From contig JBBDXZ010000106.1 of the NCBI GenBank assembly GCA_040902075.1, positions 4,417 to 68,416 on the forward strand: a DNA stretch of 64,000 nucleotides. The letters run 5' to 3'. Under the pieces are notes generated by a model that worked only from the letters and a program-made list of their open reading frames with translations, was not told the DNA's origin and did no database searches. Positions 3,107-26,183 of the stretch are shown here, one piece after another; the stretch's first letter is position 1; each line of letters begins with the position of its first letter. The position numbers and the translations under genes were made by a program. Source of the DNA: Gemmatimonadaceae bacterium. Lineage in GTDB: Bacteria > Gemmatimonadota > Gemmatimonadetes > Gemmatimonadales > Gemmatimonadaceae.

Positions 3107-3862
3107 ATGCTGGTAGAACTCGTCGAGAAGACCTGCAGTGCGATCGACCGTCTGCCAATGGAGGATGCATTGCCCGGGCTGCAGCTCGAGCTCCGGCAGC
3201 ATGCTCCTGACACAATCGCAAACCTCAGAAATGAAGCCGTGAAAAACGGAAGCTCTCCGTCCGAGAACGACGCCGTTGTGGCGGCGTCGATGCTGACGTT
3301 CGAGCACGTGAAGGGCCTTCCAACTCTCGCGCGGCTCATGGTGCAGAAGATGAGGGATCGAAGCGCCGATCCTGCCCGACGCTGCGCCGTCGCTGGCGTG
3401 CTCGCCTATCTCGTTCAGCCGCACGACGTGATTCCCGATAGCGCGTCGGGGGGATACGGCTGGCTGGATGACGCGATCCTTCTGCGCGCCGGCCTGGTCG
3501 AGTACCTGAACCTGCTGCCGCCGGGACAGACCAACCTCGAGTTCGAGCAGAAAGTCGTGGGAGTGCTCGTGAGCCTGGCCCCGGCTGACGCGCGACTGGC
3601 GCTCCAGCAGGCCATTGGCACGATGTCGCTTTCCGTTCAGCTAATGGGCCTCATGGAGGCCGAGATCGCGGAGCTGATCCTCGCGAAAGTGATAGCCAAT
3701 CCGTTCGCGACGGCGCAGCAAGCCGCTCCGCGCGGCTTCCGCGCTAAGACTGTCCCGAGTTATGATCGCGGACACTGGTCCGCGGGAATGTATTTCGAAG
3801 GGAACAGCGTTGTCATTCCCGGAGGGCCATCGCTGCTCGACGGCCAGCAATTCATTCCGTAA
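3107..3862 (+). CDS. DUF1232-like protein, paralogue A (about 80 percent aa identity by eye to 17011..17769)
   Basis: 251-aa ORF. AGVLAYLVQPHDVIPDSASGGYGWLDDAILLRAGL matches the DUF1232/YkvA core (Y..P.D.IPD...G..DD). It is near-colinear with the second copy, including about 30 nt of leader. Confidence 0.75.
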   Translation: MLVELVEKTCSAIDRLPMEDALPGLQLELRQHAPDTIANLRNEAVKNGSSPSENDAVVAASMLTFEHVKGLPTLARLMVQKMRDRSADPARRCAVAGVLAYLVQPHDVIPDSASGGYGWLDDAILLRAGLVEYLNLLPPGQTNLEFEQKVVGVLVSLAPADARLALQQAIGTMSLSVQLMGLMEAEIAELILAKVIANPFATAQQAAPRGFRAKTVPSYDRGHWSAGMYFEGNSVVIPGGPSLLDGQQFIP

Positions 3863-4165: not shown

Positions 4166-5227
4166 ATGCTCAAGCAGCTTTCGTCCCGCCAGTGTCTTGG
4201 TGTCGCGCTCATCGCGCTCATCGCGCTCCTTGCTCCGACGACCATCCTTGCTCAACGCGAGACCCCTCGCGAGAAGTTCGCGCGCATCCAGTGGGTGCGG
4301 GGTCCTGCGGACGCACGACTGGGCGACGTCGCGGACGTGGTCGTGCCGGCGTTCTGCCGCGTCACCGACGAGAAGGGCACCAAGCTCTTTCTGGAAGTCA
4401 CGGAGAATCCACCCAGTGGACGTGAAGTCGGCGTCCTTCTGTGCGACGATGCGACTGACAAGGAGTCGGGCTGGTTCGTGGTCTTCACCTACAACGAGAG
4501 CGGTCTGGTGAAAGACGACGAGAAGGCGACGCTCGACCAAGCCGCGATCCTGAAGACGCTTCAGCGCGCAACGGAGGCGGGCAACGACGAGCGGCGCAGT
4601 CGCGGGTGGGAGGAGATCGAGATCGTCGGTTGGTCGCGCCCGCCGTTCTACGATCCGGAGACGCACAATCTCACCTGGTCCACTCGGCTCCGCAGCAAGT
4701 CGTCGCCAGGTGAAACGGTCAACCACTCCGTCCGGCTGCTCGGTCGCGGCGGCGTGATGCACGCCGATTTGGTGGCCGATCCGTCGCAGATGCGCCTCGC
4801 GGTCGCGGCGTTCGACTCGATTCTCACCGAGTACACCTTCGTTCCCGGGCAGAAGTACGCCGAATGGAAGGAGGGGGACAAGGTCGCCGCGTTCGGTCTC
4901 ACCGCGCTCGTCGCCGGCGGCGCCGGCGTGGCCGCCGCGAAGCTCGGCTTGTTCAGCAAGCTCTGGAAGCTCCTCCTCGGCATTCTGATCGCCGGGAAGA
5001 AGCTCATCATCGTCGCCGTGCTGGCTATCGGCGGCGGCCTGGCGAAGCTCTTTGGAAAACGCGGAGCGCAGACGGCGGAGTCGGAGGAGAAAGCGCCTCC
5101 CGCTCCCGCGAAGGCTGGGTCGACGAAGGGCGGCGGGTCCACTCGGCCGGACCTGTATCGGAAGTACATACCACCGAACGCGAACCCACCGGCGCACGCG
5201 GGCGACGGGTCCAGTAAGACTCAGTAG
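4166..5227 (+). CDS. DUF2167 membrane-anchored protein
   Basis: 353-aa ORF with a signal peptide (ALIALIALLAPTTILAQ). W..GP...LG, GW...PFYD..TH.L.W, VNHS.RLLGR.GV and DKVAAFGLTALVAGG, followed by C-terminal TM helices, match the DUF2167 pattern. Confidence 0.75.
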   Translation: MLKQLSSRQCLGVALIALIALLAPTTILAQRETPREKFARIQWVRGPADARLGDVADVVVPAFCRVTDEKGTKLFLEVTENPPSGREVGVLLCDDATDKESGWFVVFTYNESGLVKDDEKATLDQAAILKTLQRATEAGNDERRSRGWEEIEIVGWSRPPFYDPETHNLTWSTRLRSKSSPGETVNHSVRLLGRGGVMHADLVADPSQMRLAVAAFDSILTEYTFVPGQKYAEWKEGDKVAAFGLTALVAGGAGVAAAKLGLFSKLWKLLLGILIAGKKLIIVAVLAIGGGLAKLFGKRGAQTAESEEKAPPAPAKAGSTKGGGSTRPDLYRKYIPPNANPPAHAGDGSSKTQ

Positions 5228-5280: not shown

Positions 5281-6153
5281 ATGACGGATGATATCGTCAC
5301 GACGTCATTGATACTCGCGCTCGTCGCGCTGTCCGACGGCGTCCGCCGCATTCCCGCGGGCGCGATCGTGCTTCGGAGACTGGGTCTGGGGCCATGGACG
5401 GCGCCGCGATTCGAGGAGCCCGAGTCGCGGCTCGAGCTCGTGTCTTGGTGCATTCCCCTCGCGCTGCCGCTGGTGCTCACCCGCGAATCCAACGGCACGT
5501 CAGGACCGGAGTCCGCCGAGCTCGCACTAACACGGCGACTCACGCGATTTCGTGCCCGGCTGCGCCGAGTGAGACATCACGTGTTGGCCCTGCGCATCAA
5601 CGGCCTGGCAATACTCGCGACGCTCGTCGTCGTCCTGCCGCTGCTCGCCTACCGCGGCGGCGCGTGGGGCTTTCTCGTCGGCGTCCAACTGCTGCTCACC
5701 CTGTGTCTCGTCCAGGTTGTCGCTGCCGCGATGGCGCTGCGGCGAGTCGGCATCGCCTTGCGGCCCGCGCTATTCGCGAGCGTCCCGTTCGCGTGGCCGT
5801 TCACCGCGCCGAGGGCGGCGGAAGTCGTCCAGAGTCACGCGGTCGCGGGCCTTCCGCCTCTCCTGGCCCTCCACGAGCTCGCGCCCGAGGACGAGTTTCT
5901 CCGCGTCGCGCGGCCGGCTCTCTATGACGCGATGGTCAGGAATATCGTGAGCGACGACGTAGCCGCCCTCGCCGAGCTGTGGGGCGAAGCGCGCGTCCGG
6001 TCTCTCATCGGCAAGCCATCGGCTGAAGATGCGGACCTGTACTGTCCACGCTGCGGCTCGGCGTTCAATCCCGGACGGGAGTTTTGCACCGATTGCGGCG
6101 ACGTCGCGTTGTTGCCTCGCGCCGGAGTCGTCAGTCCGATTGCAACATCGTAA
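5281..6153 (+). CDS. Hypothetical polytopic membrane protein with C-terminal zinc ribbon
   Basis: 290-aa ORF with several hydrophobic helices (ILATLVVVLPLLAY, LLLTLCLVQVVAAAMAL). The C-terminal YCPRCG...FCTDCG is a CxxC-N-CxxC ribbon. Confidence 0.55.
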   Translation: MTDDIVTTSLILALVALSDGVRRIPAGAIVLRRLGLGPWTAPRFEEPESRLELVSWCIPLALPLVLTRESNGTSGPESAELALTRRLTRFRARLRRVRHHVLALRINGLAILATLVVVLPLLAYRGGAWGFLVGVQLLLTLCLVQVVAAAMALRRVGIALRPALFASVPFAWPFTAPRAAEVVQSHAVAGLPPLLALHELAPEDEFLRVARPALYDAMVRNIVSDDVAALAELWGEARVRSLIGKPSAEDADLYCPRCGSAFNPGREFCTDCGDVALLPRAGVVSPIATS

Positions 6154-6228
6154 TCTCACGCCGAAACCATCCCGGTGCTCGATCGCGCAATGGAGGTCGT
6201 CGGCCCGCTGCCGGGCCTGGCCTAACCG

Positions 6229-8025
6229 CTAGGTCCCGGCGGCGACAATCTCGAAATCGTCCACCAGGAAAGTCGTGGTTTTGCTGCCACGCTCCCTCGA
6301 GATCAGCTTGATCCGTATCGTCCGCCCAGCATAGCTGCTCAGGTCTACCGTGCGCTGCTCGAATCCCGTCGTGACGTCCATGTTCGAGAAGCTCGCCAAC
6401 GACTCCAGCGGCTTGCCCTGGGTGTCCGCGACCAACACGAGGAGTCCATCGACCGCCGCGCTTCTGCTCTCATCGCTAGAGATGAACAGATAGAAGTTCA
6501 AGCTGATCGAGCCGGTCGTCGGCGGCAGCGCGACGTCCTGCCACAAGCTGTCGGTGTGATTGCTAGCGTGCCCGCCTAGCCACGCCTTCCATTGCCCGGT
6601 CCGCGCCGGGTTCTTCCGGTCCGACGTGATCACCCCGGCCGAAGCGGACCATCCCACCGAGCCATCCTCGAATCCGGGATTGGCGATTGGGACGCGACCG
6701 GTGGACGCCTGCACGACCCCGATGAGAGTGTCCGAATCGGACGGACCTTCATCCGGGAGGATGACGTTCATCAACATCCCGAACAGCGCGAACGCGCCGA
6801 GCACGATCAGCCCTCGACGGGACACCGTCTTGGTCATCCGCCAAAACCGCTGGAGATGTGTGATTGACGGCGGCACGACATCTCGCACGGTCGGCGGCAT
6901 CGGCGGCATCGGCGGCATCGGCGGCTTGGGATCGTTCGTGCCGCCATTCGCCTTCATCACGTCGTCCTTTCGCTTCGGCCACGACCAGCGGCGCCACGAC
7001 GGCTCGACGCCCGGCCCACCCGCTGGAGCACCCGCGCCTACGTCCGTCGCCTCCTGGAGATCCTTCCAGGCGCGTACGAACACCGCCGGTGACATGCGCT
7101 CGAGCCCCAGAAAATCGTCGAACAGCCGATGGAACTTCTTGTCAGTCTCGGACTCCGGTCCATGCTCCATCAGATACAGCGCGTTCTTGTAGAGTCCCGC
7201 GGGGATATCACCCTGGTTGTACCACTTTGCCAGTCGCTTGCGTCGGCGCTCGGCCGCCGAGCGCTCCTGCTCCTCATCGCGCCGCCGCTGCCGTTCGCGA
7301 CTCCACGCGACGATCGGCGACCCCGCCGTCTTCATTCCGGTGTATTGCGGACGTTGGCCTCGCAGCTTGGACTGAGCGTACTGGCTCAGCTCAGCCACCG
7401 TGATCTCGCCATCGTCGTTGAGATCAGCCTCGCCCGACGTGATGCCGTCGATCAGACAGCGCGTGAAGGCGCCCAGCGTCTCGGATTCCGCCGTGTGCTC
7501 CTGCGATACCTCTGCGGCGTCCGACGAGCTGAGGATGTGCAGCCCGGGCGCTCGCGCGATCTGCAGCTGGTCGCTGAGCGCGCTCCGAGTCGTCGCGAAC
7601 GCTTCGGCCGCCGCTCCGCTGAAGCAGCAGTCCAACATGAGCGTCACCTGCTCGCACGGTGACTCGCCGATCAGCTCGCGCATCTGCGGCAGGGTCAACG
7701 ACGTCGCCGCGAGCGCGTTGATCTTCGTGTCCCGGGCGCAGAGGCACAGTTGGCCGCGAAAGCTGAGCTTCCCGTGTCCCGAGTAGTAGATGAGCAGCAT
7801 GTCCGTTGGCGACGCGTCCGCCAGGAGATGCCCGACGGCCTTGCGAATGTCGGCGCTGGACGCGTTCACCAGCAGATCGTCGACCTCGAACTTGCCGAGC
7901 GCGTCGTCCTTGAGGATGGTGCTCAGACGCAATACGTCCGACGCGGGACCGCGCAGCGGAAGCAGCGCTCCACCCGAGTCGGGGAACTCGCCGTTGCCTA
8001 TCAGAAGTGCCCTGCGCCTGGTCAC
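6229..8025 (-). CDS. Caspase-family (peptidase C14) protease with one TM helix and a C-terminal extracytoplasmic jelly-roll (CBM/galactose-binding-like) domain
   Basis: 598-aa ORF. It has ALLIGNGEF, a catalytic His in LLIYYSGHGKL and a catalytic Cys in LMLDCCFSGAA. There is an EF-hand-like DLNDDGEITVAEL, a basic coiled coil and a PMPPMPPMPP linker encoded by a 9-bp repeat at about 6893-6925. A single TM helix (GLIVLGAFALFGMLMNVIL) is followed by NPGFEDGSVGW...FLVDDFEI, typical of CBM4/9-like sandwiches. Confidence 0.9.
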   Translation of the reverse strand: MTRRRALLIGNGEFPDSGGALLPLRGPASDVLRLSTILKDDALGKFEVDDLLVNASSADIRKAVGHLLADASPTDMLLIYYSGHGKLSFRGQLCLCARDTKINALAATSLTLPQMRELIGESPCEQVTLMLDCCFSGAAAEAFATTRSALSDQLQIARAPGLHILSSSDAAEVSQEHTAESETLGAFTRCLIDGITSGEADLNDDGEITVAELSQYAQSKLRGQRPQYTGMKTAGSPIVAWSRERQRRRDEEQERSAAERRRKRLAKWYNQGDIPAGLYKNALYLMEHGPESETDKKFHRLFDDFLGLERMSPAVFVRAWKDLQEATDVGAGAPAGGPGVEPSWRRWSWPKRKDDVMKANGGTNDPKPPMPPMPPMPPTVRDVVPPSITHLQRFWRMTKTVSRRGLIVLGAFALFGMLMNVILPDEGPSDSDTLIGVVQASTGRVPIANPGFEDGSVGWSASAGVITSDRKNPARTGQWKAWLGGHASNHTDSLWQDVALPPTTGSISLNFYLFISSDESRSAAVDGLLVLVADTQGKPLESLASFSNMDVTTGFEQRTVDLSSYAGRTIRIKLISRERGSKTTTFLVDDFEIVAAGT

Positions 8026-8044
8026 AACGCCTCCTAGAAAATCC

Positions 8045-8413
8045 TCATGCTGGCTTGGCGGCTTCGCCCAGGCTTTTCACGAGCATGTCCGCGTCCTTCG
8101 CTGACAACCTCTTGCCGTCGATCTTGATCTCCTTGCCGTCGGCTCCCTTGACGCTCACGGACAGCGATCGGTCGCGCTCGAGATATGTCTTGAGACACGC
8201 GATGAGTGCCGTCGCGGCGCCGCCGGTGAGAAAGGTCAACACGATCTGACCGAGCATCGCATCGCCCCGCTCACCCGGCTTTGCGGCGCTCGGCGGCGGC
8301 TCCACCCGCAGGTCGGGACTTTTGCGCAGCGACGCCGCGAACTCGCGAGCCAACTGCGCCTGCTGGCTTGCGGGCCTGTCGCTGTGCAGCTCAACCGATA
8401 TCGTCGCGCTCAT
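8045..8413 (-). CDS. EACC1-like small membrane-associated protein (effector-associated constant component-like)
   Basis: The ORF track gives 8045..8434. The Met at 8413 has a GAGG 8 nt upstream. The layout is an N-terminal beta/alpha segment (ISVELHS...QLAREFAASLRKSPDLRV), a Gly/Ala-rich hydrophobic segment (MLGQIVLTFLTGGAATALIACL), then V.V.G.DG.....G. This matches my memory of EACC1 proteins that precede caspase or trypsin effectors. It ends 19 nt before the caspase start. The assignment is an inference. Confidence 0.5.
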   Translation of the reverse strand: MSATISVELHSDRPASQQAQLAREFAASLRKSPDLRVEPPPSAAKPGERGDAMLGQIVLTFLTGGAATALIACLKTYLERDRSLSVSVKGADGKEIKIDGKRLSAKDADMLVKSLGEAAKPA

Positions 8414-8542
8414 GGTGGACCTCGGCTGCGGCACGGGAATCTCCCATCCGAAGGTTGCGTATTGCGCGGCGGTTGTCCACGGGGAATGTGCTCCCCGTAA
8501 ATCTTAGGAAGCGTTAAGGTTGCGCCGCGCTGTTGCAGTGTT

Positions 8543-9121
8543 TTGTCCGACCGCGAGCCCCACGTTACCGGTATATCGTTCCCCAACCGTTCCTTGGGTG
8601 TTCCCGACGTTCCTCGGCCTACCTCCACACCGGCGCGAGCGTCGCACCGTCCTTCACCGCGACAAGTCGTGATTCGCGAGCCTTACTCGGACCTTATCAC
8701 AGTTCTGGTATCACGGTCTCGGATTGAGCAGTCTCGACGTGTTTGCGCACCGGGGGAGGGCGGTGACCTGAGACTCTGCGCCTGCGAATCGATTCGTATC
8801 TTCGGGTCCGTCGTCGGGGGTCAGGGCGGGGAGGGTGGTCACGCGGTCGCTTACGCGCAGAACGGATGGTCGGGCGAGGCCGAAGGAGGTCCGGGCAACG
8901 CGGCGGGACATGTCTACTTCACAGGAATCGCGAATACGCCCTGCGCGGTCATGATCTCAGGGTCCGTCTCCGCCTCCATCGGCGGATGGGGCGGCGAAGT
9001 GGACGCGTACGGCGGCATGGGTGCCACGGCCGGCGGCAATGCGACGGCCATCGGCGGTCGAGCGGGTCCGGGCGGTGCGGGCCGCGTCGCGGTGGCGGCG
9101 AGCGTAACCGGGGTTCCTTAA
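8543..9121 (+). CDS. Possible glycine-rich orphan protein (weak)
   Basis: 192-aa ORF in the 785-bp gap between two minus-strand operons. The 3' two-thirds (GGQGGEGG...GGWGGEVDAYGGMGATAGGNATAIGGRAGPGGAG) has high third-position GC and the 5' third does not. There is no canonical internal start and no family recognised. Confidence 0.25.
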   Translation: MSDREPHVTGISFPNRSLGVPDVPRPTSTPARASHRPSPRQVVIREPYSDLITVLVSRSRIEQSRRVCAPGEGGDLRLCACESIRIFGSVVGGQGGEGGHAVAYAQNGWSGEAEGGPGNAAGHVYFTGIANTPCAVMISGSVSASIGGWGGEVDAYGGMGATAGGNATAIGGRAGPGGAGRVAVAASVTGVP

Positions 9122-9219
9122 CGTTTGCTCAGATGGCGTCAATGATCGACGCATTCAATCGCAGCCTTTTCCGCGTGCAACAGCCGCCCGCTTGATCTTT
9201 TACTTGCGAGTGCGAAACC

Positions 9220-10413
9220 CTATCTCCAGATCGGCGCCAACTGGGCTCCTTCACTCACGGCCTGATCCAACCGCGCCTCAGCCGCCTCCCACAACAGCGT
9301 CGTCGCATGCCGCACTCCGACTGGGAACGCCAGAATCCGCTCGGCATTGTTCGGCACGAGGTACCGCACCGCCTCGGCTAAACGCTCGAGCCGCACCTCG
9401 GGCGGAGGGTGCGCGTCGTGCGTGTACGGTCGATCGCTCTCCTCGGCCGCGCTCAACTTCGCGACGGCGCGATACACGAGCTCCACGATCGTGAAGAACA
9501 GCTCGACCCCGGTGTACACCAGCGTCAAGTCGGTCCGGTCCTTCAGGGCGTGGAAGGTCAACATCAGCCCCATCCAGTCCGCCTCGAATTCCTGCTGGTG
9601 CGACGCCACCAGCTCGTCCGCCTCCTCACTGAAGCTCATCAGCGCGCCGGAGCCATGAGCAATCTCGAGATGTCCCGCGAGGACGTGCCCGTACTCGTGC
9701 CCCATCACGAAATACTCCAGCGCTTCCCGGAATTCGGTGGCCGCCTTCGACGGCTGCCATTCCTGTATATAGGAAGGCGCCTTCACCGGTGTGCCGTCCA
9801 GCACGTACGCGAGCAGCGCTTCGGAGAATCGCTGAATGGCGCGGCCGTCGCCGCGGATGTGGCGCTCGACGTCTTCTTCTGCGGTCGAAAACGTGAGCCC
9901 TCCCTCCGCGGTCTCTTTGAACGGCAACGCGTACGCCACGGCTTTCGTGAAGAGCAGCGCAAAGACGAAGAAGTGGCTCTCGAACAGCACGAAGCGTCCA
10001 GGCACCAAGCGATGCTTGAGCGCGAGCGCGTTGACGCGCCGAGAGGGCAGGCTGCCGAACCAGATGCGGTGCGGACGCGGGAGCGACAGCTTGGCGATGA
10101 CGGCTTCGAGATCGGTCGAGATGTCGCCAAGGATTGTTTGCCAGAACGGGTTCTCGTACGGCGTGAACGGCTCCGTCCCACCAGAAAATGACTTGGTGAG
10201 CTCGTCGCGCATGTGGTCGCGATGATCCGGATGGAAGCTCTCCAGCACGCGCTCGAGGAACGCCGGGTCCAGCTTCTGGCGGAGAAGCGCGATGCTCTCG
10301 CGCTCGGCGTCACCGTATTCGCCGAGCTCGGATAACGTCTTCTCTTGAAGCTGGGTCAGAAACCGATACGCCGCCGCTTTCTCCGCCGCCGCCTCCGCCG
10401 CCTCTGAATCCAC
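9220..10413 (-). CDS. HExxH zinc metalloprotease, ImmA/IrrE(M78)-like motif arrangement
   Basis: 397-aa ORF with FVMGHEYGHVLAGH followed about 30 aa later by QQEFEADWMG (HExxH ... ExxA[D/N]). The GTG start overlaps the TAG stop of the upstream CHAT gene by 1 nt (TAGTG at 10411-10415), implying translational coupling. Confidence 0.7.
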   Translation of the reverse strand: MDSEAAEAAAEKAAAYRFLTQLQEKTLSELGEYGDAERESIALLRQKLDPAFLERVLESFHPDHRDHMRDELTKSFSGGTEPFTPYENPFWQTILGDISTDLEAVIAKLSLPRPHRIWFGSLPSRRVNALALKHRLVPGRFVLFESHFFVFALLFTKAVAYALPFKETAEGGLTFSTAEEDVERHIRGDGRAIQRFSEALLAYVLDGTPVKAPSYIQEWQPSKAATEFREALEYFVMGHEYGHVLAGHLEIAHGSGALMSFSEEADELVASHQQEFEADWMGLMLTFHALKDRTDLTLVYTGVELFFTIVELVYRAVAKLSAAEESDRPYTHDAHPPPEVRLERLAEAVRYLVPNNAERILAFPVGVRHATTLLWEAAEARLDQAVSEGAQLAPIWR

Positions 10414-13400
10414 TAACGCACCGCGGGCCTTCGCCGCGCCGTTTTGTCCGCCTTTTTGTCCGCCGTTATGTCCGCAGTCTTGTCACTCCACACGACGCGA
10501 CCGTCCGGATTGCCGTAGACGACGTAGGCGAGCCACGTTCCCTCGCGCGCGCGCATCGCGGCATCGCGCCCCGCGCGTGCCGCCGCGGCGATCGTCTTTC
10601 CCTTCCGCAGCTCCTTGTAGAACGCCTCGGTGAACGTGTGCGCCGGTTCGTCGCCCACCGCCCACAGCGTCCCGACGAACGCACCCGCGCCCTTGCCCAG
10701 GAACGCCTGCGCGAATCCACCGACGCTCGTGAGCTTCCAGTTGGGCCGCCCAACCTGGCAGGCGTTGAGCACCACCAGGGGACGATTACCCTGCGGCCCC
10801 GTGAGTGACGCATGCTGCTGCACCTGTTCGGAATCGAAGTACGAGGGCGTGTAGGTTTGTCCCGAGAGATCGCCACGCATCATGATCTTCGCCGCTGGCG
10901 ACGGAGCCTGCGACGTCTGGATCTCCGCCTCCCCATGTCCCGCGAAATGGAAGTGGTCGACACTGCCCGCGGTCGCGATCAGCTTCCGGATCGCGTTGAC
11001 TTCGGCGGCGTGCTCCTTCGCCCCCAGCTTGTCGCGTAGGAACGGGATCTCCTTCTGCGCCGCGGGGAGCTCCCAGTCCTTGACCGGATACGCCGGAATG
11101 ACGTAGTACGAGTGGCCTGCGCGGATGCGTATCTCGGGCGGAGCCGCCGGATAGTTGGCCAGCCACCGCACCAGCCCCTTCTGCGCCAGGAAGTGAGTCT
11201 CGGGTCCCAGAGACGACGCCGGCCTTCCGGGGACACGCGGCTCCTTGAGGTGGACGACCTCCCAAGGAATGAAGGGTTCCTTCGACGCCACGAGGATCGC
11301 GTCGAGCGTGTCGCGCGCGTCCCACAGCGGCCGCTGGATCTCCGGCGGCACGAGCTCGTCGAACAGCGTTCCTCCGAAAGCGCGCAGCTCCTGCTCGAAC
11401 GCTTCCACGTCCTCCTTGTTGCGCAGCCAGCGATCCTCGATCTGGCTGTACATGTTCGCGATGTAAGCGGCGCGATCCACTTTGAGGGGATCGGACACTC
11501 CGTCCACGAACTGATTGCGCCCCAGGATCAGCAGGAACTTGTAGCACAGCGACTTGCCGTGGCTCACCTCTTCGATGATGAGCATCGGGTACTCGCCGCC
11601 GCTCTGGGCAACCGGTTCCGCTTCAGCCTGCGCGGCCACCGACGCCGAGTCTTTCGCCGAGACTTTCGCCGCGATCTTGGGACGCAGAACCAACGTCGCC
11701 AGCTTCTGCACACCTTGAAGGATCAGGAGCTGGACCTCGCCCTGACCGTTGTGCGTCGGTTTCACCTGGAACATGAGATCGAATCGTCGCTGCGCCGTCG
11801 GATCGAGTACCGCGCGCGCTTCGCCCACTACGTCGATGTTCTTCGTGCCGATGAGCTGTACCACGAGCTCGCGCTCGAGGTTGACGGGCGCGTCGCCGCG
11901 CGCCTCCAGCACTCCCTCCACCGCTTCGATGACGTCGCGCGAGATCGTGGCGTGCACCTGCGTCGTCTTCTTCACCTGAACTGTCTGCGGCATGTGCGCG
12001 GAGAAATAGAACTTCGCGGTCGGTGGGCCGCCGCCGGCTGAGCCTTCACCGCCTCCCGCTCCCCCGCCGGAGCCCGCCGGCCCATCGGCAGGAGGAGGGG
12101 ACGTGCGAGGCGGAGGCGCGGACCGCGTCATTGCCTCCGCCATGCGAGGCATCGAACGCCGCCGCATCAGGTCCGCCATCACGATGTCGTCCGGATCGAT
12201 TCGCACACGTCCCGAATCACGCCTCCCCATCTTTCCGCTCGCGCGCCTCGGCGCGGGGGCTGCTGCCGGTGGAGCGCGCCTCGCTCCGCGTCGCACGCCC
12301 ATGGTCATGCTGCTCTTGATCTCCGCCACAGACTGGCCGAACGCCGGATCGATCACGGCGCGTGGAGCGATGCCGTCCAGCACGACGGTGCGAATCGCGG
12401 TGAACCCCCGGTTCCCGAAGTTCTCCCGCGGCGCGCGCGGGTTGCTCATCGGCACCGATCCCGACGCGCTGTCCTCGCCGAGCGCGAGCACGGGGTCGTC
12501 GTCCAACGCCTGCCACAGCGGTTCCTTCGGCTCGAAGCCCGCTGACGCCTGCCGCTTGGTCCCGTAGCCGAGCAGCTCTTCCGACCTGAACGCATAGACG
12601 TAGGGCTTGTAGGGCCGGTTGTCACGCATCACGACGACGTACTTCGGCAGCTCGGCGCGGATCGTGGCCAGGACGTCGCCGAATTGATCGTCTGATTGCA
12701 TCACCACGAACGACGTGTCCGCCTCGGCGGTCAGGCCCGCGGCAATCTCGATCTCGCCCGTGTGTCCCGCGTACCGGACATCCAGCTCCAGCCACTTCTC
12801 GAGTGCGCGCACGACCTCGGGTTGCGCGAAGTAGATCGTGTGATAGACGTGCGGGTTCTTTCCGAACTCCAGCTTGTCCTTCACGAATGCCCCCGCCGAG
12901 GGGTCGATGTGCGACATGGATCCGATTCCCACGAGCAGATCGTTCGGCTCGCGCATCAGCTTGTCCACGAACGAGTCCGCGAGCCACTGCTTCAAACGGG
13001 GAGAAAGCTCCGGCGCGCCGGGGCCGGTGAGATCGATGTTGAAGTCGGAGGACACGACGTAGAAGAGCGAGTCGGCGGCGCTCGGCTGTCCCTTCTGCGT
13101 CTTGTTGATCTCCGTGACGAAATCGCCGTCGGGCTCCATCGCGCTCAGACCGGGCGCACGGCGCTCGGAGATGGCGGCGGTGGCCAGATGCTTCACGAGC
13201 GTGCCCACCGTCTGCACCGTCTCCTTGATGATGACGCCGGCGCCGGGCGCGCCGAGCAGGGAGACGACGCGGCCGCCCGCGACCGCGATGTTGGTGTACA
13301 GATCGATGAGCTTCTTCCAGTTGTCGGGCTCGGCGAACTTGGTCCCGCCATTCGCGCCGCCCACGAATATCGCGCGTCGAACGCACGACCCCAGCGACGA

Positions 13401-14390
13401 ATGTGGGAGCAGATGCTCGATGAAGCTCCGCAGCACCAGCGCGCCCCGGCTGTGCGAGATCGCGTCGATGTGCGGCGCGATGCCGAAGCGGCTGCGCTCC
13501 AGCCGGGCCAACAGGTCGGTCGCGTTCTCGAGCGGGTCTTCCGAGAGCGTGGGATGATCGTATCCGACCACGACGTCGTACGTGTCCAGCGCGTCGGCGA
13601 GGAATGCCTTGCCCGCGTCGGTCGCCGTGAGCGCGCCGAACGCGCCCACCGTGCTGCTGAACGTCCCGTGCACGAACAGCAGGATCCGCGGCGCGCGGTC
13701 GGTGGGCAGGACCACCGTGCGCAGATCGTCCATCACCCGCCAGTCGCTCGGGTCGTCGGCATCCATGACGACGAACGCCTTGCGCGCGTTGCGCTCCAGG
13801 AACTTGATGCCCTGGCCGACCGCAAGGCGGGCGACGAACTTGAGCACGTAACCGCGAACCGTCTTCGCGACGAATCCCAGCGGTCCGCCGCGCCTGGTCC
13901 GCGTGCCGGCGCCAGTGCCGGTGCTGCTGCCAGTGACGCCGAGGTCGAAGGTGACGGTCTTGCGACGCCCCTCGACGAGCGGTCCGCGCCGGGTGGAGGG
14001 CGCGACTTCGACTTTCGAAGGCTCGATGCGCCACTCGTAGACGTCGTCCGTCTCGAGCAGCATGACCGCGTCTTCACCCTCGGCGAGATCGACGGTCGCC
14101 TTCCTGGGCTGTGCACGCGCGCCCCGCTTTGCAGTTGGCGGCTCGTCCGGAAGCTCGACCTCGAATGCCGCGATGAGCTCCATGTCCTGCGCGCGCAAAC
14201 TCTCGACGACCGGATCGGTCGTCCTCTCGCCTCGCGCCGTCGTGTCGCCGACGGAGATGGGGCCGCGGGGGAGGGGACGCCGTCCGCGTCGCACGCCGGC
14301 GTCCGGTGTGGGTGCAACGGAGAGGTCGCGTGCCGTAGCGCCGTCGGGGAGGTCGAGCTGAACACCGCCGACTGTGATGCTGATCGTCAT
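10413..14390 (-). CDS. Giant alpha/beta-hydrolase-CHAT fusion protease
   Basis: 1325-aa ORF. N-terminal third: ILLFVHGTFSS, the nucleophile elbow DAISHSRGALV, and later EPNDLLV and NPHVYH, which is a lipase/esterase-like Ser-Asp-His arrangement. Middle: a Pro/Gly low-complexity linker (PPPRTSPPPADGPAGSGGGAGGGEGSAGGG). C-terminus: a CHAT dyad, HFHFAGHGEAE and LVVLNACQVG, then AFVGTLWAV.D. Confidence 0.9.
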   Translation of the reverse strand: MTISITVGGVQLDLPDGATARDLSVAPTPDAGVRRGRRPLPRGPISVGDTTARGERTTDPVVESLRAQDMELIAAFEVELPDEPPTAKRGARAQPRKATVDLAEGEDAVMLLETDDVYEWRIEPSKVEVAPSTRRGPLVEGRRKTVTFDLGVTGSSTGTGAGTRTRRGGPLGFVAKTVRGYVLKFVARLAVGQGIKFLERNARKAFVVMDADDPSDWRVMDDLRTVVLPTDRAPRILLFVHGTFSSTVGAFGALTATDAGKAFLADALDTYDVVVGYDHPTLSEDPLENATDLLARLERSRFGIAPHIDAISHSRGALVLRSFIEHLLPHSSLGSCVRRAIFVGGANGGTKFAEPDNWKKLIDLYTNIAVAGGRVVSLLGAPGAGVIIKETVQTVGTLVKHLATAAISERRAPGLSAMEPDGDFVTEINKTQKGQPSAADSLFYVVSSDFNIDLTGPGAPELSPRLKQWLADSFVDKLMREPNDLLVGIGSMSHIDPSAGAFVKDKLEFGKNPHVYHTIYFAQPEVVRALEKWLELDVRYAGHTGEIEIAAGLTAEADTSFVVMQSDDQFGDVLATIRAELPKYVVVMRDNRPYKPYVYAFRSEELLGYGTKRQASAGFEPKEPLWQALDDDPVLALGEDSASGSVPMSNPRAPRENFGNRGFTAIRTVVLDGIAPRAVIDPAFGQSVAEIKSSMTMGVRRGARRAPPAAAPAPRRASGKMGRRDSGRVRIDPDDIVMADLMRRRSMPRMAEAMTRSAPPPRTSPPPADGPAGSGGGAGGGEGSAGGGPPTAKFYFSAHMPQTVQVKKTTQVHATISRDVIEAVEGVLEARGDAPVNLERELVVQLIGTKNIDVVGEARAVLDPTAQRRFDLMFQVKPTHNGQGEVQLLILQGVQKLATLVLRPKIAAKVSAKDSASVAAQAEAEPVAQSGGEYPMLIIEEVSHGKSLCYKFLLILGRNQFVDGVSDPLKVDRAAYIANMYSQIEDRWLRNKEDVEAFEQELRAFGGTLFDELVPPEIQRPLWDARDTLDAILVASKEPFIPWEVVHLKEPRVPGRPASSLGPETHFLAQKGLVRWLANYPAAPPEIRIRAGHSYYVIPAYPVKDWELPAAQKEIPFLRDKLGAKEHAAEVNAIRKLIATAGSVDHFHFAGHGEAEIQTSQAPSPAAKIMMRGDLSGQTYTPSYFDSEQVQQHASLTGPQGNRPLVVLNACQVGRPNWKLTSVGGFAQAFLGKGAGAFVGTLWAVGDEPAHTFTEAFYKELRKGKTIAAAARAGRDAAMRAREGTWLAYVVYGNPDGRVVWSDKTADITADKKADKTARRRPAVR
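10444..10486. repeat. 12-bp periodic (T/A)TGTCCG half-array embedded in the 3' end of the CHAT CDS (family 3)
   Basis: ttgtccg/ttgtccg/atgtccg/cttgtca at 12-bp spacing (unit ends at 10450, 10462, 10474, 10486). It encodes the tail DKTADITADKKADKTA. The same unit forms the intergenic arrays at 20823-20993, 22853-22927 and 26205-26223. Confidence 0.7.
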
Positions 14391-14639: not shown

Positions 14640-16982
14640 ATGCCCCTCGAGCGTGTACCCACCGTCCAGCAGATCCTGGACACCTTCCGTGCGGGCGACA
14701 GTGCGCGCCGCCGACGGCTCATCCAGGAGTGTTCGGCTACGTCCATGACCGACATGGCGCTCATGGCGGCCGGCATGGATATGACGACGATGCGCGCGCA
14801 GGCGCTCGACTTCCTCGCGATGAGCTACGCGAACTCGGGACCGCTGGACTGCGCCACCAACTTCGGCGCCGCCTGTTACCAGTTCTCGAGCGAGGAATAC
14901 GACTCCAGCGATCCGCGCGACGACGTCTACCTGCTGTGTGCGGGGCGCGGCGCGATCAGCTGGATGACGTCGCTCCAGCGGCAGGGCAGGCACACCGAGA
15001 TCCTCGCCGAGTCGGACACGGTCTTGGCCTGGCTCGGGAAAGCGGGTGACACGCAGAATGCCGACAGCCTTCGACTCAAGCAGATCGAAGCGCAGCTCGA
15101 CCTGGAGCGGTACGACGCCGCGGAGAAGCTCCTCGACGCTATCGACGAGGCCGCGCTTCCTCGGTTGGTGCAGGTGTCCTTTCGAGCGCTCCGCGAACGG
15201 CTGAAACAGCGCAAAGGCGGCGGCACCATGCTTTCCGAGGAGGCCGACGATCCCTCCGACGCTCTGAAGCGAGTGCTGGGCGTGAAGGTCGAGAAACGAG
15301 AGAAGCCGGCATCTCCCAAGGGTATCGCCACGGAGCAAACCTGGAAGGACGTGCAGGAGCTTGGCGACGCGACGCGCAGCGTCCTCGACAAACTGTTCAA
15401 GGGCGGAAGCGGGGAATTGGCCATCCGGCAGGAGATCCTGGAGGCCGCGTCGCTGTTCGCCGATCCCGTTGCCGGTCGCGACCGCGCGAGGATCGCGGAG
15501 AGCGAGGCGGTGTTGCTGCGCGCGCGGGATTGGATGGCTGAGAACAACTTTCCTGAAAACGAGAACGACGCGTGCTGGGGCTTGTATCTGTGCTACTCGC
15601 GCACGGCGCGGGAAGCGCTCGCGGCGGCCGAGTTGCAGCGCATTCGCGGGAACATCGAGATCGCTCGACTCAACATCGCGAGTCCCACGGAGCGGGCAAA
15701 CCTCTCCGCGCGCTTCCCCTACCTCTATCCCGCGCTGTGCACCATGCTGTACAAGCTCGATCGTCCCGCGGAGATGCTGGAGGCCATCGAGTCGAGCAAG
15801 GGCCGCGCGCTCGCGGACCTCGTCGCCCTGCGTGGCGGTGTGATTCTCCCCGACACGGCGTTAGCCAGCTCCGTCCGGGAGCTCCCGGCGCTCATGCAGC
15901 GGCTGGACGCGCATTACCACACATTTCTCGTGGATACCGACTGCACCTACACCGCGAGCGTCTTCAGCGACGGAAGCGTGCGGACGGGCAAAGTGAGTCT
16001 GGGGCAGGAGGCGCTCAACAAGCTCGCGAGCACGCTCGAGGACCACACGCGCCGCTCGGTTCCCGCCGTCCCACGAAAGTTCGGTGACGCGCTGGCGCCG
16101 CTGGTGAGTCATCTGGAGCCGCTCGTGCGCGCAGGGGTGATCCACAAGGGGGAGCACCTCTGCTATTCCCCGGACGACGCGATCCATGTGCTGCCGCTCC
16201 AGTGCGCCACCTTTCTCGGAGGCCCGCTCGTAAAGACCGTCTCCGTCTCGCGCGCGCAGGGCGCGCATTTTCTCGTCGAGCTCATGAAGCGGGAGCCGCT
16301 GCGACCCAAGACCTTCGTCGCCGTCGAGGTTCCCGCCGCCCAGGATCTCGAGTCCATTCCCAAGCTCCGGGCCTTTCGCGCGCCGGTGAAGTGGCTCGCT
16401 GACAACGTGAAGAAAGGTGAGACCATCGCCGGAGAGCAGGCGGATCTGGCAAGGGTGAGCGCGGCGAAGCTGTCCAACACGCTCGTGCACTTCGCGACGC
16501 ACGGTGTCTTCCCGTCGAAGGACCAGAAAGGGCAGGCCGCGAATCCATATCAGGCGTCGGGAATGCTGCTCGCGGCCAACGGCAAGCTGCCGGACCTGGA
16601 CGCCGTCGCGAGGGGCAAGGCGATCGAGCATTCGCTCACGCCAAAGTGCGCGGTGGAGCTCGAGCTCGATCTCTCACGCTCACATCTGACGCTGCAAGCC
16701 TGCGTCAGCGGTCTCGCCAGGGAAGGCATCGGCGGTGATGCGCTCGGACTGGAGTGGGCGTTTCTGCAACTGGGCGCCGCGAGCATCCTCGCGACGCACT
16801 GGGACGTTCGCGCGGACACGACCAGCGATTTCGTCGCACGATTCTATACGCGCTGGTTGACCAAAGGTGAAACGCGAGCCGTCGCGTGGAGGAGCACGAT
16901 CGAGGACTTCCTCGGCAGCAAGGGTGAGCTCGCCGAGGCGTACAACTGGTCCGCCTTTTCACTGTCCGGGGACTGGAGATAA
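14640..16982 (+). CDS. TPR-like/helical N-terminal domain + CHAT protease
   Basis: 780-aa ORF with a long helical N-terminal region. The CHAT region has SKGRALADL, the His in LVHFATHGVF and the Cys in HLTLQACVSGL, then ASILATHWDV.D. Confidence 0.9.
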   Translation: MPLERVPTVQQILDTFRAGDSARRRRLIQECSATSMTDMALMAAGMDMTTMRAQALDFLAMSYANSGPLDCATNFGAACYQFSSEEYDSSDPRDDVYLLCAGRGAISWMTSLQRQGRHTEILAESDTVLAWLGKAGDTQNADSLRLKQIEAQLDLERYDAAEKLLDAIDEAALPRLVQVSFRALRERLKQRKGGGTMLSEEADDPSDALKRVLGVKVEKREKPASPKGIATEQTWKDVQELGDATRSVLDKLFKGGSGELAIRQEILEAASLFADPVAGRDRARIAESEAVLLRARDWMAENNFPENENDACWGLYLCYSRTAREALAAAELQRIRGNIEIARLNIASPTERANLSARFPYLYPALCTMLYKLDRPAEMLEAIESSKGRALADLVALRGGVILPDTALASSVRELPALMQRLDAHYHTFLVDTDCTYTASVFSDGSVRTGKVSLGQEALNKLASTLEDHTRRSVPAVPRKFGDALAPLVSHLEPLVRAGVIHKGEHLCYSPDDAIHVLPLQCATFLGGPLVKTVSVSRAQGAHFLVELMKREPLRPKTFVAVEVPAAQDLESIPKLRAFRAPVKWLADNVKKGETIAGEQADLARVSAAKLSNTLVHFATHGVFPSKDQKGQAANPYQASGMLLAANGKLPDLDAVARGKAIEHSLTPKCAVELELDLSRSHLTLQACVSGLAREGIGGDALGLEWAFLQLGAASILATHWDVRADTTSDFVARFYTRWLTKGETRAVAWRSTIEDFLGSKGELAEAYNWSAFSLSGDWR

Positions 16983-17010
16983 AACCGCACTCTTGCGAGG
17001 AGACGTCACA

Positions 17011-17769
17011 ATGCTGGTACAGCTCGTCGAGAAGACCTGCGCCGCGATCGACGGTTTGAACATGGAAGATGCATTGCCCGGGCTGCAGCTCCAGCTCCGG
17101 CAGAGTGCTCCTGATGCAATCGCAAACCTCAGGACGGAAGGCGTGAAGCACGGAGGCAACCCGTCCGAGAACGACGCCGTCATGGGAGCGGCATTGCTGG
17201 CGCTCGTGTACGTCAAGGGCCTTCCGGCTCTTGCACGACTCATGGTGCAGAAGATGAAGGATCGGCGCATCGACGCTGCCCGGCGCTGCGCCGTCGCCGG
17301 CGTACTCGCTTATTTCGTTCAGCCGCACGACCTGATTCCCGACAATGCGCCGGGCGGTTACGGTTGGCTCGATGACGCGATTCTTCTGCGTGCCGGCCTG
17401 ATCGAGTACCTGAACCTGCTACCGCCAGGACAAACCAAGGTCGAGTTCGAGCAGAAAGTCGTGGGAATCCTCGTGGGCCTGACCCCGACTCACGTACGGC
17501 CTTCGCTCCAGCAGGCTATCGGCGCGATGTCGCTCGCCGTTCAGGTAATGGGCCTCATGGAGGGCGAGATCGCGGAGTTCGTCCTTGCGCAAGTGATAGC
17601 CAATCCGCTCAATACAGATCCGCCGGTCGTTCCGCCTGGCTTCAGACCTCACAGTGTTCCGAGTTATGATCGCGGACACTGGTCCGCGGGCATGTACTTC
17701 GAGGGAAACAGCGTGGTCATTCCCGGAGGACCATCACTGATCGACGGCCAGCTTTTCATTCCGACCTAA
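17011..17769 (+). CDS. DUF1232-like protein, paralogue B
   Basis: The ORF track gives 16867..17769, but the ATG at 17011 (MLVQLVEKTC...) aligns with the start of paralogue A and avoids overlapping the CHAT gene. It has the same DUF1232 core (YFVQPHDLIPDNAPGGYGWLDDAILLRAGL). It starts 28 nt after the CHAT stop, and its stop overlaps the convergent NlpC/P60 stop by 4 nt. Confidence 0.75.
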   Translation: MLVQLVEKTCAAIDGLNMEDALPGLQLQLRQSAPDAIANLRTEGVKHGGNPSENDAVMGAALLALVYVKGLPALARLMVQKMKDRRIDAARRCAVAGVLAYFVQPHDLIPDNAPGGYGWLDDAILLRAGLIEYLNLLPPGQTKVEFEQKVVGILVGLTPTHVRPSLQQAIGAMSLAVQVMGLMEGEIAEFVLAQVIANPLNTDPPVVPPGFRPHSVPSYDRGHWSAGMYFEGNSVVIPGGPSLIDGQLFIPT

Positions 17770-18473
17770 CCGTACCACTTCACCTTGAGCGCCTTGGCCG
17801 TTCCGCGACCCACCTCGCCATCCACGAGCAGGCCCTTCGACATCTGAAACGCCTGCACGGCCGCGGCGGTCTGCGGACCATAAACGCCGTCGATCGGGCC
17901 CGCGTGGAACCCGATCTTCTTGAGCCGACGCTGAACGTCCTTCACCAGCTCGCCCCTCATGAGAGGCGTCTTCACGCGCAGCACGAGCGCCGGACGCTTC
18001 GGCGGCTTCGGCGCGTCCTCCACCTTCACCGTGATCCCGGGGACGAGCACGCCGGTGTGCCAGCGACGCCCCTCGGATCTGCTCTCGATCACGCCCTTCT
18101 TCGAGGAATGTGCTTCGACGGTCTTTCCATTTCCCATGGAAATCACGACGTGGCCCACCGCGCCCCCCTCGGGCGCCCGCAGGAGAAACGCACCCGGCGT
18201 CGCGCTGGCCTGACCGATCGAGATCAGTTTCCCAAGCTTCCGCGCGTCCTCCATCCAGAAGCCGGAGTACGCGTCCGCGATATCCGGACCCTGCGCCCGC
18301 GGCCGGCAGCCAAACAGCTTGCCCGTCGCCTGGAACACGCACCACGACGCGAACTCGGCGCAGTCCCACGGACCCGCCCACTCGGGATTGCCCTTTGGCA
18401 CTTTGGCGCCGAGGACGTACTGCTCGCCCACGTGGGCGCGGGCGATGCGAAGAAGCGCCGCGGCAGTCGCCAT
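17766..18473 (-). CDS. NlpC/P60-family peptidase + peptidoglycan-binding (PG_binding_1) domain, no signal peptide
   Basis: 235-aa ORF. GPWDCAEFASWC carries the nucleophile Cys and GHVVISMG...VEAHS the His. The C-terminal L..G..G.DV..LQ..L...G...G.IDG.YG..T..AV..FQ pattern is the PGB domain. No N-terminal hydrophobic signal is visible. Confidence 0.8.
   Translation of the reverse strand: MATAAALLRIARAHVGEQYVLGAKVPKGNPEWAGPWDCAEFASWCVFQATGKLFGCRPRAQGPDIADAYSGFWMEDARKLGKLISIGQASATPGAFLLRAPEGGAVGHVVISMGNGKTVEAHSSKKGVIESRSEGRRWHTGVLVPGITVKVEDAPKPPKRPALVLRVKTPLMRGELVKDVQRRLKKIGFHAGPIDGVYGPQTAAAVQAFQMSKGLLVDGEVGRGTAKALKVKWYG

Positions 18474-23015: not shown

Positions 23016-26183
<3,168 letters not shown>

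Follow-up and report, generated by a model that had tools for sequence, protein, structure and literature searches.

In a stretch of 64,000 nucleotides from a Gemmatimonadaceae bacterium (contig JBBDXZ010000106.1, positions 4,417 to 68,416 of the forward strand; hereafter the window), two adjacent genes encode an EACC1 protein and an EACC1-associated caspase that crosses the membrane once and carries a predicted jelly-roll domain at its far end. We read this pair as what is probably a self-contained, two-gene module for abortive infection or cell death, in which the periplasmic jelly-roll domain would serve as the input. EACC1-caspase pairs were defined as 'System 4' by Kaur, Burroughs, Iyer and Aravind (2020, eLife; PMC7159879), who found the caspase to be constant and the region C-terminal to it to be variable, with about 50 alternative domains, and a homologous pair from Ktedonobacter racemifer has since been characterised (Evans et al. 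2025, bioRxiv 10.1101/2025.11.14.688446). The novelty of the window locus is its ectodomain, the rest being a published and partly characterised system. An initial annotation of this DNA had placed EACC1 next to 'variable protease effectors', a description that we correct here, as the caspase is constant and only its C-terminus varies (PMC7159879), and as EACC1 itself is the effector, namely a pore former (10.1101/2025.11.14.688446).

The EACC1 protein and its caspase partner

Both reading frames lie on the minus strand in the open reading frame (ORF) listing, where the initial annotation had located them, and all features of the two genes given below are on that strand. The small ORF of 122-129 aa noted in front of the caspase gene is present at 8045-8413 or 8045-8434, depending on the start codon: an ATG at 8413 yields 122 aa and the alternative GTG at 8434 yields 129 aa, both ending at the stop codon 8045-8047. 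The ATG is favoured, since an exhaustive phmmer search with EACC1 returned 318 cluster representatives at E ≤ 1e-3 that are mostly 120-125 aa long and whose alignments start near query residue 10, and since the gene was called as 122 aa, with an EACC1 match, in an independent Logan assembly (L007). A word-indexed protein search with EACC1 retrieved a 70-aa identical fragment and nothing else. The suggestion that this ORF encodes EACC1 was borne out by Pfam PF19953, which the 122-aa protein matches with 40.9 bits against a cut-off of 23.6, residues 24-122 covering positions 4-103 of the 107 in the model.

The caspase gene (6229-8025; 598 aa), assigned by its Pfam and NCBIfam matches, opens with a GTG that is preceded, 4 nt to its 5' side, by a Shine-Dalgarno sequence AGGAGG (8030-8035) read directly from the DNA. 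The EACC1 gene stands immediately 5' on the same strand with 19 nt between its stop and the caspase start, a spacing consistent with one operon. The GC content at third codon positions (GC3) is 0.81 in the EACC1 ORF and 0.83 in the caspase ORF, in a window of 65% GC, and by this enrichment both look like real genes. A protein identical to the 598-aa caspase (P0001) bears the NCBI name 'caspase family protein [Gemmatimonadaceae bacterium]'. A scan of 5900-9400 revealed no sigma-70 promoter and no Rfam match, and the terminator-like matches in the same interval were at chance level only and on the wrong strand.

The N-terminal caspase (Peptidase_C14) domain occupies aa 3-229 (7339-8019; PF00656, E 2.9e-18), and its type is given by the NCBIfam model NF047832 ('caspase, EACC1-associated type'), which is matched with 149.4 bits against a cut-off of 140, aa 4-223 covering positions 1-210 of the 211 in the model. 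The catalytic residues, His84 (7774-7776) in YYSGHG and Cys134 (7624-7626) in LDCCFSG, align to the YSGHG and DSCHSG motifs of metacaspase-4 (PDB 6w8s), and this dyad is invariant in 12 relatives (alignment A5). Inside the caspase domain, pattern match and conservation identify an EF-hand-type loop, DLNDDGEITVAEL (aa 201-213; 7387-7425), which the initial annotation had already pointed out and which is found again at this position in 57 of 108 homologs and in 59 of 85 GTDB ORFs. The loop pattern D-x-[DN]-x-[DN]-G-x-[IV]-[TS]-x-x-[DE]-L lies about 67 residues after the catalytic Cys in the window protein and, among the homologs P0002-P0120, in more than half of the EACC1-type caspases, and G198, A200, D201 and G206 around it are invariant in the alignment of relatives. 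While DLNDDGEITVAE fits a PROSITE-style EF-hand pattern, the loop is a single one within the caspase domain and not a paired EF-hand, and Pfam EF-hand_5 scores it below threshold (13.5 bits versus a cut-off of 25.9, E 0.051), so that binding of Ca2+ by the loop should be regarded as a lead only.

Between the caspase domain and the membrane, on the cytoplasmic side, a charged helix (aa 241-266) occupies the place at which a basic coiled coil had been predicted, and it leads into a conserved helical module (aa ~265-325) with the consensus RLxxWxxxGxIPxxVY...LLxLL...AWxAL (together 7051-7305, the module at 7051-7230). The module is common to the single-pass relatives and duplicated in three homologs (P0009, P0010 and P0012). 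The charged helix and module (aa ~241-325) have no Pfam match; a so far undescribed role next to the membrane or in dimerisation is possible for the module.

The AF2 model of EACC1, computed from 84 sequences (pLDDT 85.9), is a soluble alpha/beta unit in which the N-terminal strands lie beside the C-terminal strands, with a first strand at aa 3-10, a first helix at aa 15-30 and a second strand at aa 35-38; Foldseek found no significant neighbour for it among solved structures (best E 7e-3). The central hydrophobic helix with a small/Gly patch, a trait of the EACC1 family, is present. The corresponding Gly/Ala-rich segment, QIVLTFLTGGAATALIACL, reaches a Kyte-Doolittle maximum of 1.82 and has the family consensus LTFxxSGAAxAL, and G65, R80 and G93 are nearly invariant. 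Directly before this segment stands a conserved motif, PG-x-[RK]-G-[DE], with G in 53, R or K in 59, G in 51 and D or E in 44 of 60 aligned homologs. The window copy is the canonical PGERGD (aa 46-51 in the numbering of the 122-aa protein; 8261-8278) and falls into the least confident loop of the model (pLDDT ~67), and from the homolog alignment and this loop the caspase is predicted to cut after Asp51. Such a cut would separate an N-terminal part (aa 1-51; 8261-8413; 5.46 kDa), predicted to be autoinhibitory, from a C-terminal fragment (aa 52-122; 8048-8260; 7.38 kDa, pI 9.3), predicted to be a pore-forming toxin, both by analogy to the K. racemifer protein KrEACC1.

Membrane topology and the periplasmic domain

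As had been proposed, a Pro-rich PMPPMPPMPP linker is followed by a single transmembrane helix at aa 405-423 (6757-6813; Kyte-Doolittle 2.35), which is the only strongly hydrophobic stretch of the 598-aa protein. The 15 residues flanking the helix on its N side hold 5 K/R and 0 D/E, those on its C side 0 K/R and 4 D/E, and in 14 of 15 single-pass relatives K/R are likewise more numerous before the helix than after it, with equal numbers in the remaining one. By the positive-inside rule, the caspase is therefore placed in the cytoplasm and the C-terminus outside it, an assignment for which we also considered where homologs of each domain occur. A candidate Tat/Sec signal in the N-terminal MTRRRALLIGNG was rejected, as in all relatives this segment forms the conserved strand with which the caspase fold begins, and no hydrophobic region comes after it. 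Thus, both the flank charges (+5/-4) and the caspase strand at the N-terminus uphold the initial view of an intracellular caspase devoid of a signal peptide. That view also had the C-terminal domain outside the cell, of which the extracytoplasmic position holds by the flank charges; since the Gemmatimonadota are diderm, Gram-negative bacteria, however, 'outside' here means the periplasm.

The extracytoplasmic part holds a domain of 150 aa at aa ~446-598 (6232-6690), which AF2 models as an all-beta structure with a pLDDT of 91.6 and a pTM of 0.83. Foldseek searches of the PDB with this model gave 174 matches at E ≤ 1e-3, the top ones being the carbohydrate-binding module (CBM) CBM61 (2xom, E 2.4e-8), CBM16, CBM22, CBM4-2, meprin MAM and LAST-MAM, with TM-scores of 0.64-0.74 when normalised to the target. 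By its modelled fold the ectodomain is a jelly roll of the CBM/MAM type, and the sandwich that the initial annotation expected is thereby recovered, as a statement on fold only. A PDB sequence search with the ectodomain gave no match, and the NCBIfam model choice_anch_J reached 16.1 bits, below its cut-off of 30. A search with aa 424-598 returned 49 proteins. Apart from the ortholog P0121 treated below, they match over part of the query with 33-60% identity and contain Peptidase_S8, thermolysin, PPC, He_PIG, Big_7 or PKD domains; homologs of the domain with 37-45% identity belong to proteins with Peptidase_S8, Peptidase_M4, PPC and Ig-like domains. Those inspected include proteins with signal peptides, the domain being a C-terminal or internal accessory in secreted subtilases, thermolysins and Ig-repeat proteins. 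Among 47 aligned ectodomain sequences, InhA-like_MAM (PF20773) was matched by 37, MAM by 8 and CBM_4_9 by 7 at a permissive E ≤ 1 (best 7.4e-8), and a profile search with the untrimmed alignment (A1) mostly matched the flanking protease domains. The window domain has the same fold as the InhA-like MAM, MAM, CBM4_9, CBM16 and CBM61 modules known as accessory domains of secreted enzymes, but it is held at the inner membrane and shares a polypeptide with a caspase in the cytoplasm.

The N-terminal signature NPGFE.G...W is invariant in the ectodomain family, and all 14 family-invariant residues, aromatic and acidic ones among them, are kept in the window ectodomain. A partial ortholog from a JGI metagenome (P0121/L006; 88% identity) spans the linker, the transmembrane helix and the ectodomain, and a Nei-Gojobori comparison with it gave a dN/dS of 0.12 for the ectodomain, as opposed to 0.65 for the cytoplasmic linker and ~1.3 for the transmembrane helix and stalk. 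The ectodomain is hence the constrained part, under purifying selection, which together with the 14 retained residues argues that it is functional.

The linker itself is encoded by a 9-bp tandem repeat (6891-6925; Tandem Repeats Finder, 3.9 copies, 100% matches, score 70) and reads KPPMPPMPPMPPTVRDVVPPS in the window protein versus KPPVSPTPLEPVPPS in the ortholog, whose DNA (L006) has a degenerate version of the repeat that is 18 bp shorter. As such, the perfect repeat and the difference in length anticipated by the initial annotation were both found, but they amount to ordinary linker drift and not to a switch: in the comparison with this one ortholog the repeat is lineage-specific and in frame, as expected of ordinary linker plasticity, and a role in phase variation was rejected because the repeat is in frame. 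Two metagenome scans, one with the protein and one with a degenerate DNA pattern for EPSWRRWSWPKRK, found no further relatives.

An alignment-based scan of GTDB species genomes identified at least 571 relatives; a scan of genome contigs with the single protein as query found none. We examined 87 caspase ORFs, namely those in the 80 loci returned by the alignment-based scan and in four loci of close relatives (L001 and L003-L005). EACC1 was detected directly upstream in 59 of the 87 with our own hidden Markov model (HMM); relatives with this arrangement include L003, L004, L005 and L007. At least one hydrophobic helix follows the caspase in 44 of the 87 ORFs, and 18, about one in five, are single-pass proteins with a tail of at least 100 aa. 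These tails include Sel1 repeats, FGE-sulfatase, SPOR, LytR_C, a Ricin-B lectin and a weak TonB-type match, and the ectodomains of close relatives also include cupredoxin and TonB_C. The best caspase homologs cover 36-61% of the query and continue into different C-terminal domains. A MAM-like domain was seen in none of the surveyed loci, nor in the 120 best caspase matches besides the window protein, and the combination of caspase and MAM-like ectodomain is confined, in this survey, to the window protein and the one partial ortholog. The variety of domains that single-pass relatives have in the position of the ectodomain suggests that it is a swappable input, which would parallel the diverse sensors fused to the protease in published systems.

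At least 33% of the EACC1-associated caspase proteins described by Kaur et al. have transmembrane helices, in some of them followed by an extracellular periplasmic-binding-protein domain (PMC7159879), so that the caspase-membrane-extracellular architecture class was already known. The window locus resembles System 4 in its gene order, with EACC1 on the 5' side and the caspase gene on the 3' side, and in the build of the caspase protein, in which a variable C-terminal region follows the N-terminal caspase. It differs in its CBM/MAM-like domain, which is absent from the main text of that study and has no matching term in a portion of its supplement, and in its host, a Gemmatimonadaceae metagenome-assembled genome, whereas System 4 was described as mainly actinobacterial and sporadically proteobacterial (PMC7159879).

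Proposed mechanism and competing explanations

For the steps that lead from cleavage to a pore, our reading borrows from the characterised homolog. The K. racemifer caspase cuts EACC1 into fragments of 5.7 and 7.1 kDa, with Asp49 as putative cleavage site according to an AlphaFold3 model and the fragment sizes; the C-terminal 7.1-kDa fragment alone is toxic, and it is only cleaved EACC1 that permeabilises liposomes (10.1101/2025.11.14.688446). The sensor of that system, KrAvs12, is a soluble STAND ATPase triggered in the cytoplasm by a phage tail-connector protein, and for the characterised EACC1 and Pepco systems a triggering or sensing role is ascribed to the domains fused to the protease (10.1101/2025.11.14.688446). 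The window pair shares with EACC1-KrAvs12 the combination of protease and effector, the size of EACC1, the position of the motif (Asp51 versus Asp49 in KrEACC1), the predicted fragment masses (5.46/7.38 kDa versus the measured 5.7/7.1 kDa) and, in our model, the packing of N-terminal on C-terminal strands. It lacks an NTPase, and the domain presumed to be its input is on the far side of the membrane; a transmembrane or periplasmic EACC1 sensor is not described in that study (10.1101/2025.11.14.688446).

Here we propose that the periplasmic domain would bind a multivalent ligand from the envelope or the invader, for example a glycan, a piece of peptidoglycan or some component of a phage, and that the receptors would thereby cluster, with their cytoplasmic caspase domains drawn close to each other. 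Proximity might then activate them, as in other caspase-fold proteases, and the active caspase would cut EACC1 after Asp51 in the PGERGD loop. The freed 71-aa C-terminal fragment would oligomerise into a pore in the inner membrane, and the cell would be killed or arrested. The cleavage logic draws on the conserved PGx[RK]G[DE] motif, on its place in the most flexible loop of the model and on fragment masses that match those of KrEACC1, and it is the anatomy of the protein that suggests the periplasmic domain as the input and a signal across the membrane. Taken furthest, this would make the caspase a one-polypeptide bacterial 'death receptor', in which a lectin-like periplasmic domain binds a ligand of invader or envelope-damage origin, clustering through the transmembrane helix activates the caspase and the pore peptide is released, an idea that we put forward tentatively and consider rather unlikely in this complete form. 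Operons of gasdermins and proteases occur in bacteria, and in mammals a route leads from death receptors through caspases to gasdermin. The window pair resembles these in that a caspase-fold protease would strip an inhibitory part from a pore-forming protein and, if the ectodomain senses a ligand, in the succession of an extracellular binding domain, a single transmembrane helix and intracellular caspase activation. It differs in that EACC1 is unrelated to gasdermins and that receptor and caspase are one polypeptide with no death-fold adaptors.

Several observations weigh against the module as proposed. The EACC1 genes of the closest caspase relatives (L003, L005 and P0178) read PGERGVLGPALGEF or PGERGLLGPALGEF, with no Asp/Glu after RG at the aligned position and with one extra residue. 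The cleavage residue is therefore not universal, these being the closest Gemmatimonadota-type EACC1s, and members of this clade may be cleaved at another site or with another specificity. Two close relatives of the caspase (P0002 and P0021) end 1-2 residues past the transmembrane helix, so that a membrane tether without an ectodomain is viable, and to localise the protein may be all that the ectodomain does. In addition, the window ectodomain alone matches no Pfam family at E ≤ 1, PADLOC recognised the locus by its generic 'caspase' model only and assigned no named defence system, and for a role in phage defence we extrapolate from the single homolog that has been characterised.

It is possible, although we consider it unlikely, that the module serves not defence but programmed death linked to envelope stress, development or kin in a soil bacterium, and that the periplasmic domain monitors the state of the cell's own envelope. 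Organisms with EACC1 systems tend to be multicellular in habit (650 of 671; PMC7159879), and fusions of EACC1 to DnaK have suggested roles in stress responses (10.1101/2025.11.14.688446). The surroundings of the locus, with two CHAT proteins and an NlpC/P60-PG_binding wall hydrolase and no classic defence genes, would agree with such a function, as would the PADLOC result. However, the only characterised homolog responds to phage tail-connector proteins (10.1101/2025.11.14.688446), and this explanation alters the trigger and leaves the mechanism as it is.

The main rival of a sensing ectodomain is one that anchors the caspase by holding on to peptidoglycan or to a glycan in the periplasm, which would confine the processing of EACC1 to the membrane, while the trigger would be a cytoplasmic or membrane cue, such as an influx of Ca2+ read by the EF-hand-type loop or a perturbation of the membrane. 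The SPOR, LytR_C and TonB_C ectodomains of relatives are classic wall-binding modules, some close relatives have a transmembrane helix and almost no tail, and the EF-hand-type loop is kept in more than half of the family; eukaryotic metacaspases, moreover, depend on Ca2+. Nevertheless, the dN/dS of 0.12 and the wide variety of ectodomains fit ligand specificity better, EF-hand_5 scores the putative Ca2+ site below threshold, and the characterised EACC1 and Pepco systems use their fused domains for triggering or sensing (10.1101/2025.11.14.688446); we find an anchor doubtful. Very improbable, finally, is the original 2020 proposal that the transmembrane segment of EACC1 senses a membrane signal and that the caspase deploys the variable C-terminal domains as effectors by autoproteolysis (PMC7159879), as the ectodomain of the window protein is a non-catalytic binding fold located across the membrane from the protease, the EACC1 of the homolog was found experimentally to be a toxic, pore-forming substrate (10.1101/2025.11.14.688446) and in the AF2 monomer the hydrophobic segment is part of a soluble alpha/beta unit and does not form a transmembrane helix.

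Genomic surroundings and implications

Upstream of the EACC1 pair lies a 1325-aa protein (10413-14390, minus strand) with DUF7362, DUF7379 (E 5.7e-64), a weak TCAD7, DUF7363 and a C-terminal CHAT caspase-fold protease, whose stop overlaps the start of a 397-aa M48-like metallopeptidase (9220-10413, minus strand); the two look like a second, separate protease-based conflict system directly upstream. The stretch of 785 bp between the M48-like gene and EACC1 (8435-9219) has an unusual length for an intergenic region, given how densely genes are packed in the window, and ORFs within it were rejected as real genes, their GC3 not being raised. A functional link of the EACC1 pair to the M48-like and CHAT genes was likewise rejected, given this gap and the fact that none of the relatives examined has the same neighbours. 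A 780-aa protein with a C-terminal CHAT domain (14640-16982, plus strand; E 3.3e-29), divergently oriented to the 1325-aa CHAT gene, brings the number of caspase-fold proteases to three within 11 kb. DUF1232 proteins are encoded on both sides of this protease cluster (3107-3862 and 16867-17769, both plus strand) and may be paralogs that mark the edges of an island. Further genes are those for the NlpC/P60-PG_binding_1 wall hydrolase (17766-18473, minus strand), a Ser/Thr kinase with TPR repeats (23016-26183, plus strand), a DUF2167 membrane protein (4166-5227, plus strand) and a 290-aa protein ending in a zinc ribbon (5281-6153, plus strand), the last being convergent with the caspase gene.

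As matters stand, the window locus contributes a single further domain to a family in which domain shuffling is well known. EACC1-caspase pairs are an experimentally grounded, protease-activated pore system, the sole characterised example of which senses a phage protein in the cytoplasm, while the window locus and about one in five of its relatives place the presumed input domain in the periplasm. If the ectodomain gates the caspase, suicide would be triggered by a signal at the level of the envelope, in a layout resembling animal death receptors. With its two genes, no NTPase and a confidently folded ectodomain, the window protein offers a compact and well-conserved test case of this idea. 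Should the 'death receptor' interpretation be true, the window protein, together with the SPOR, ricin, LytR_C, FGE and cupredoxin relatives, would represent a class of suicide modules triggered from the outside in, by which a phage or other attack would be detected before it enters the cytoplasm.

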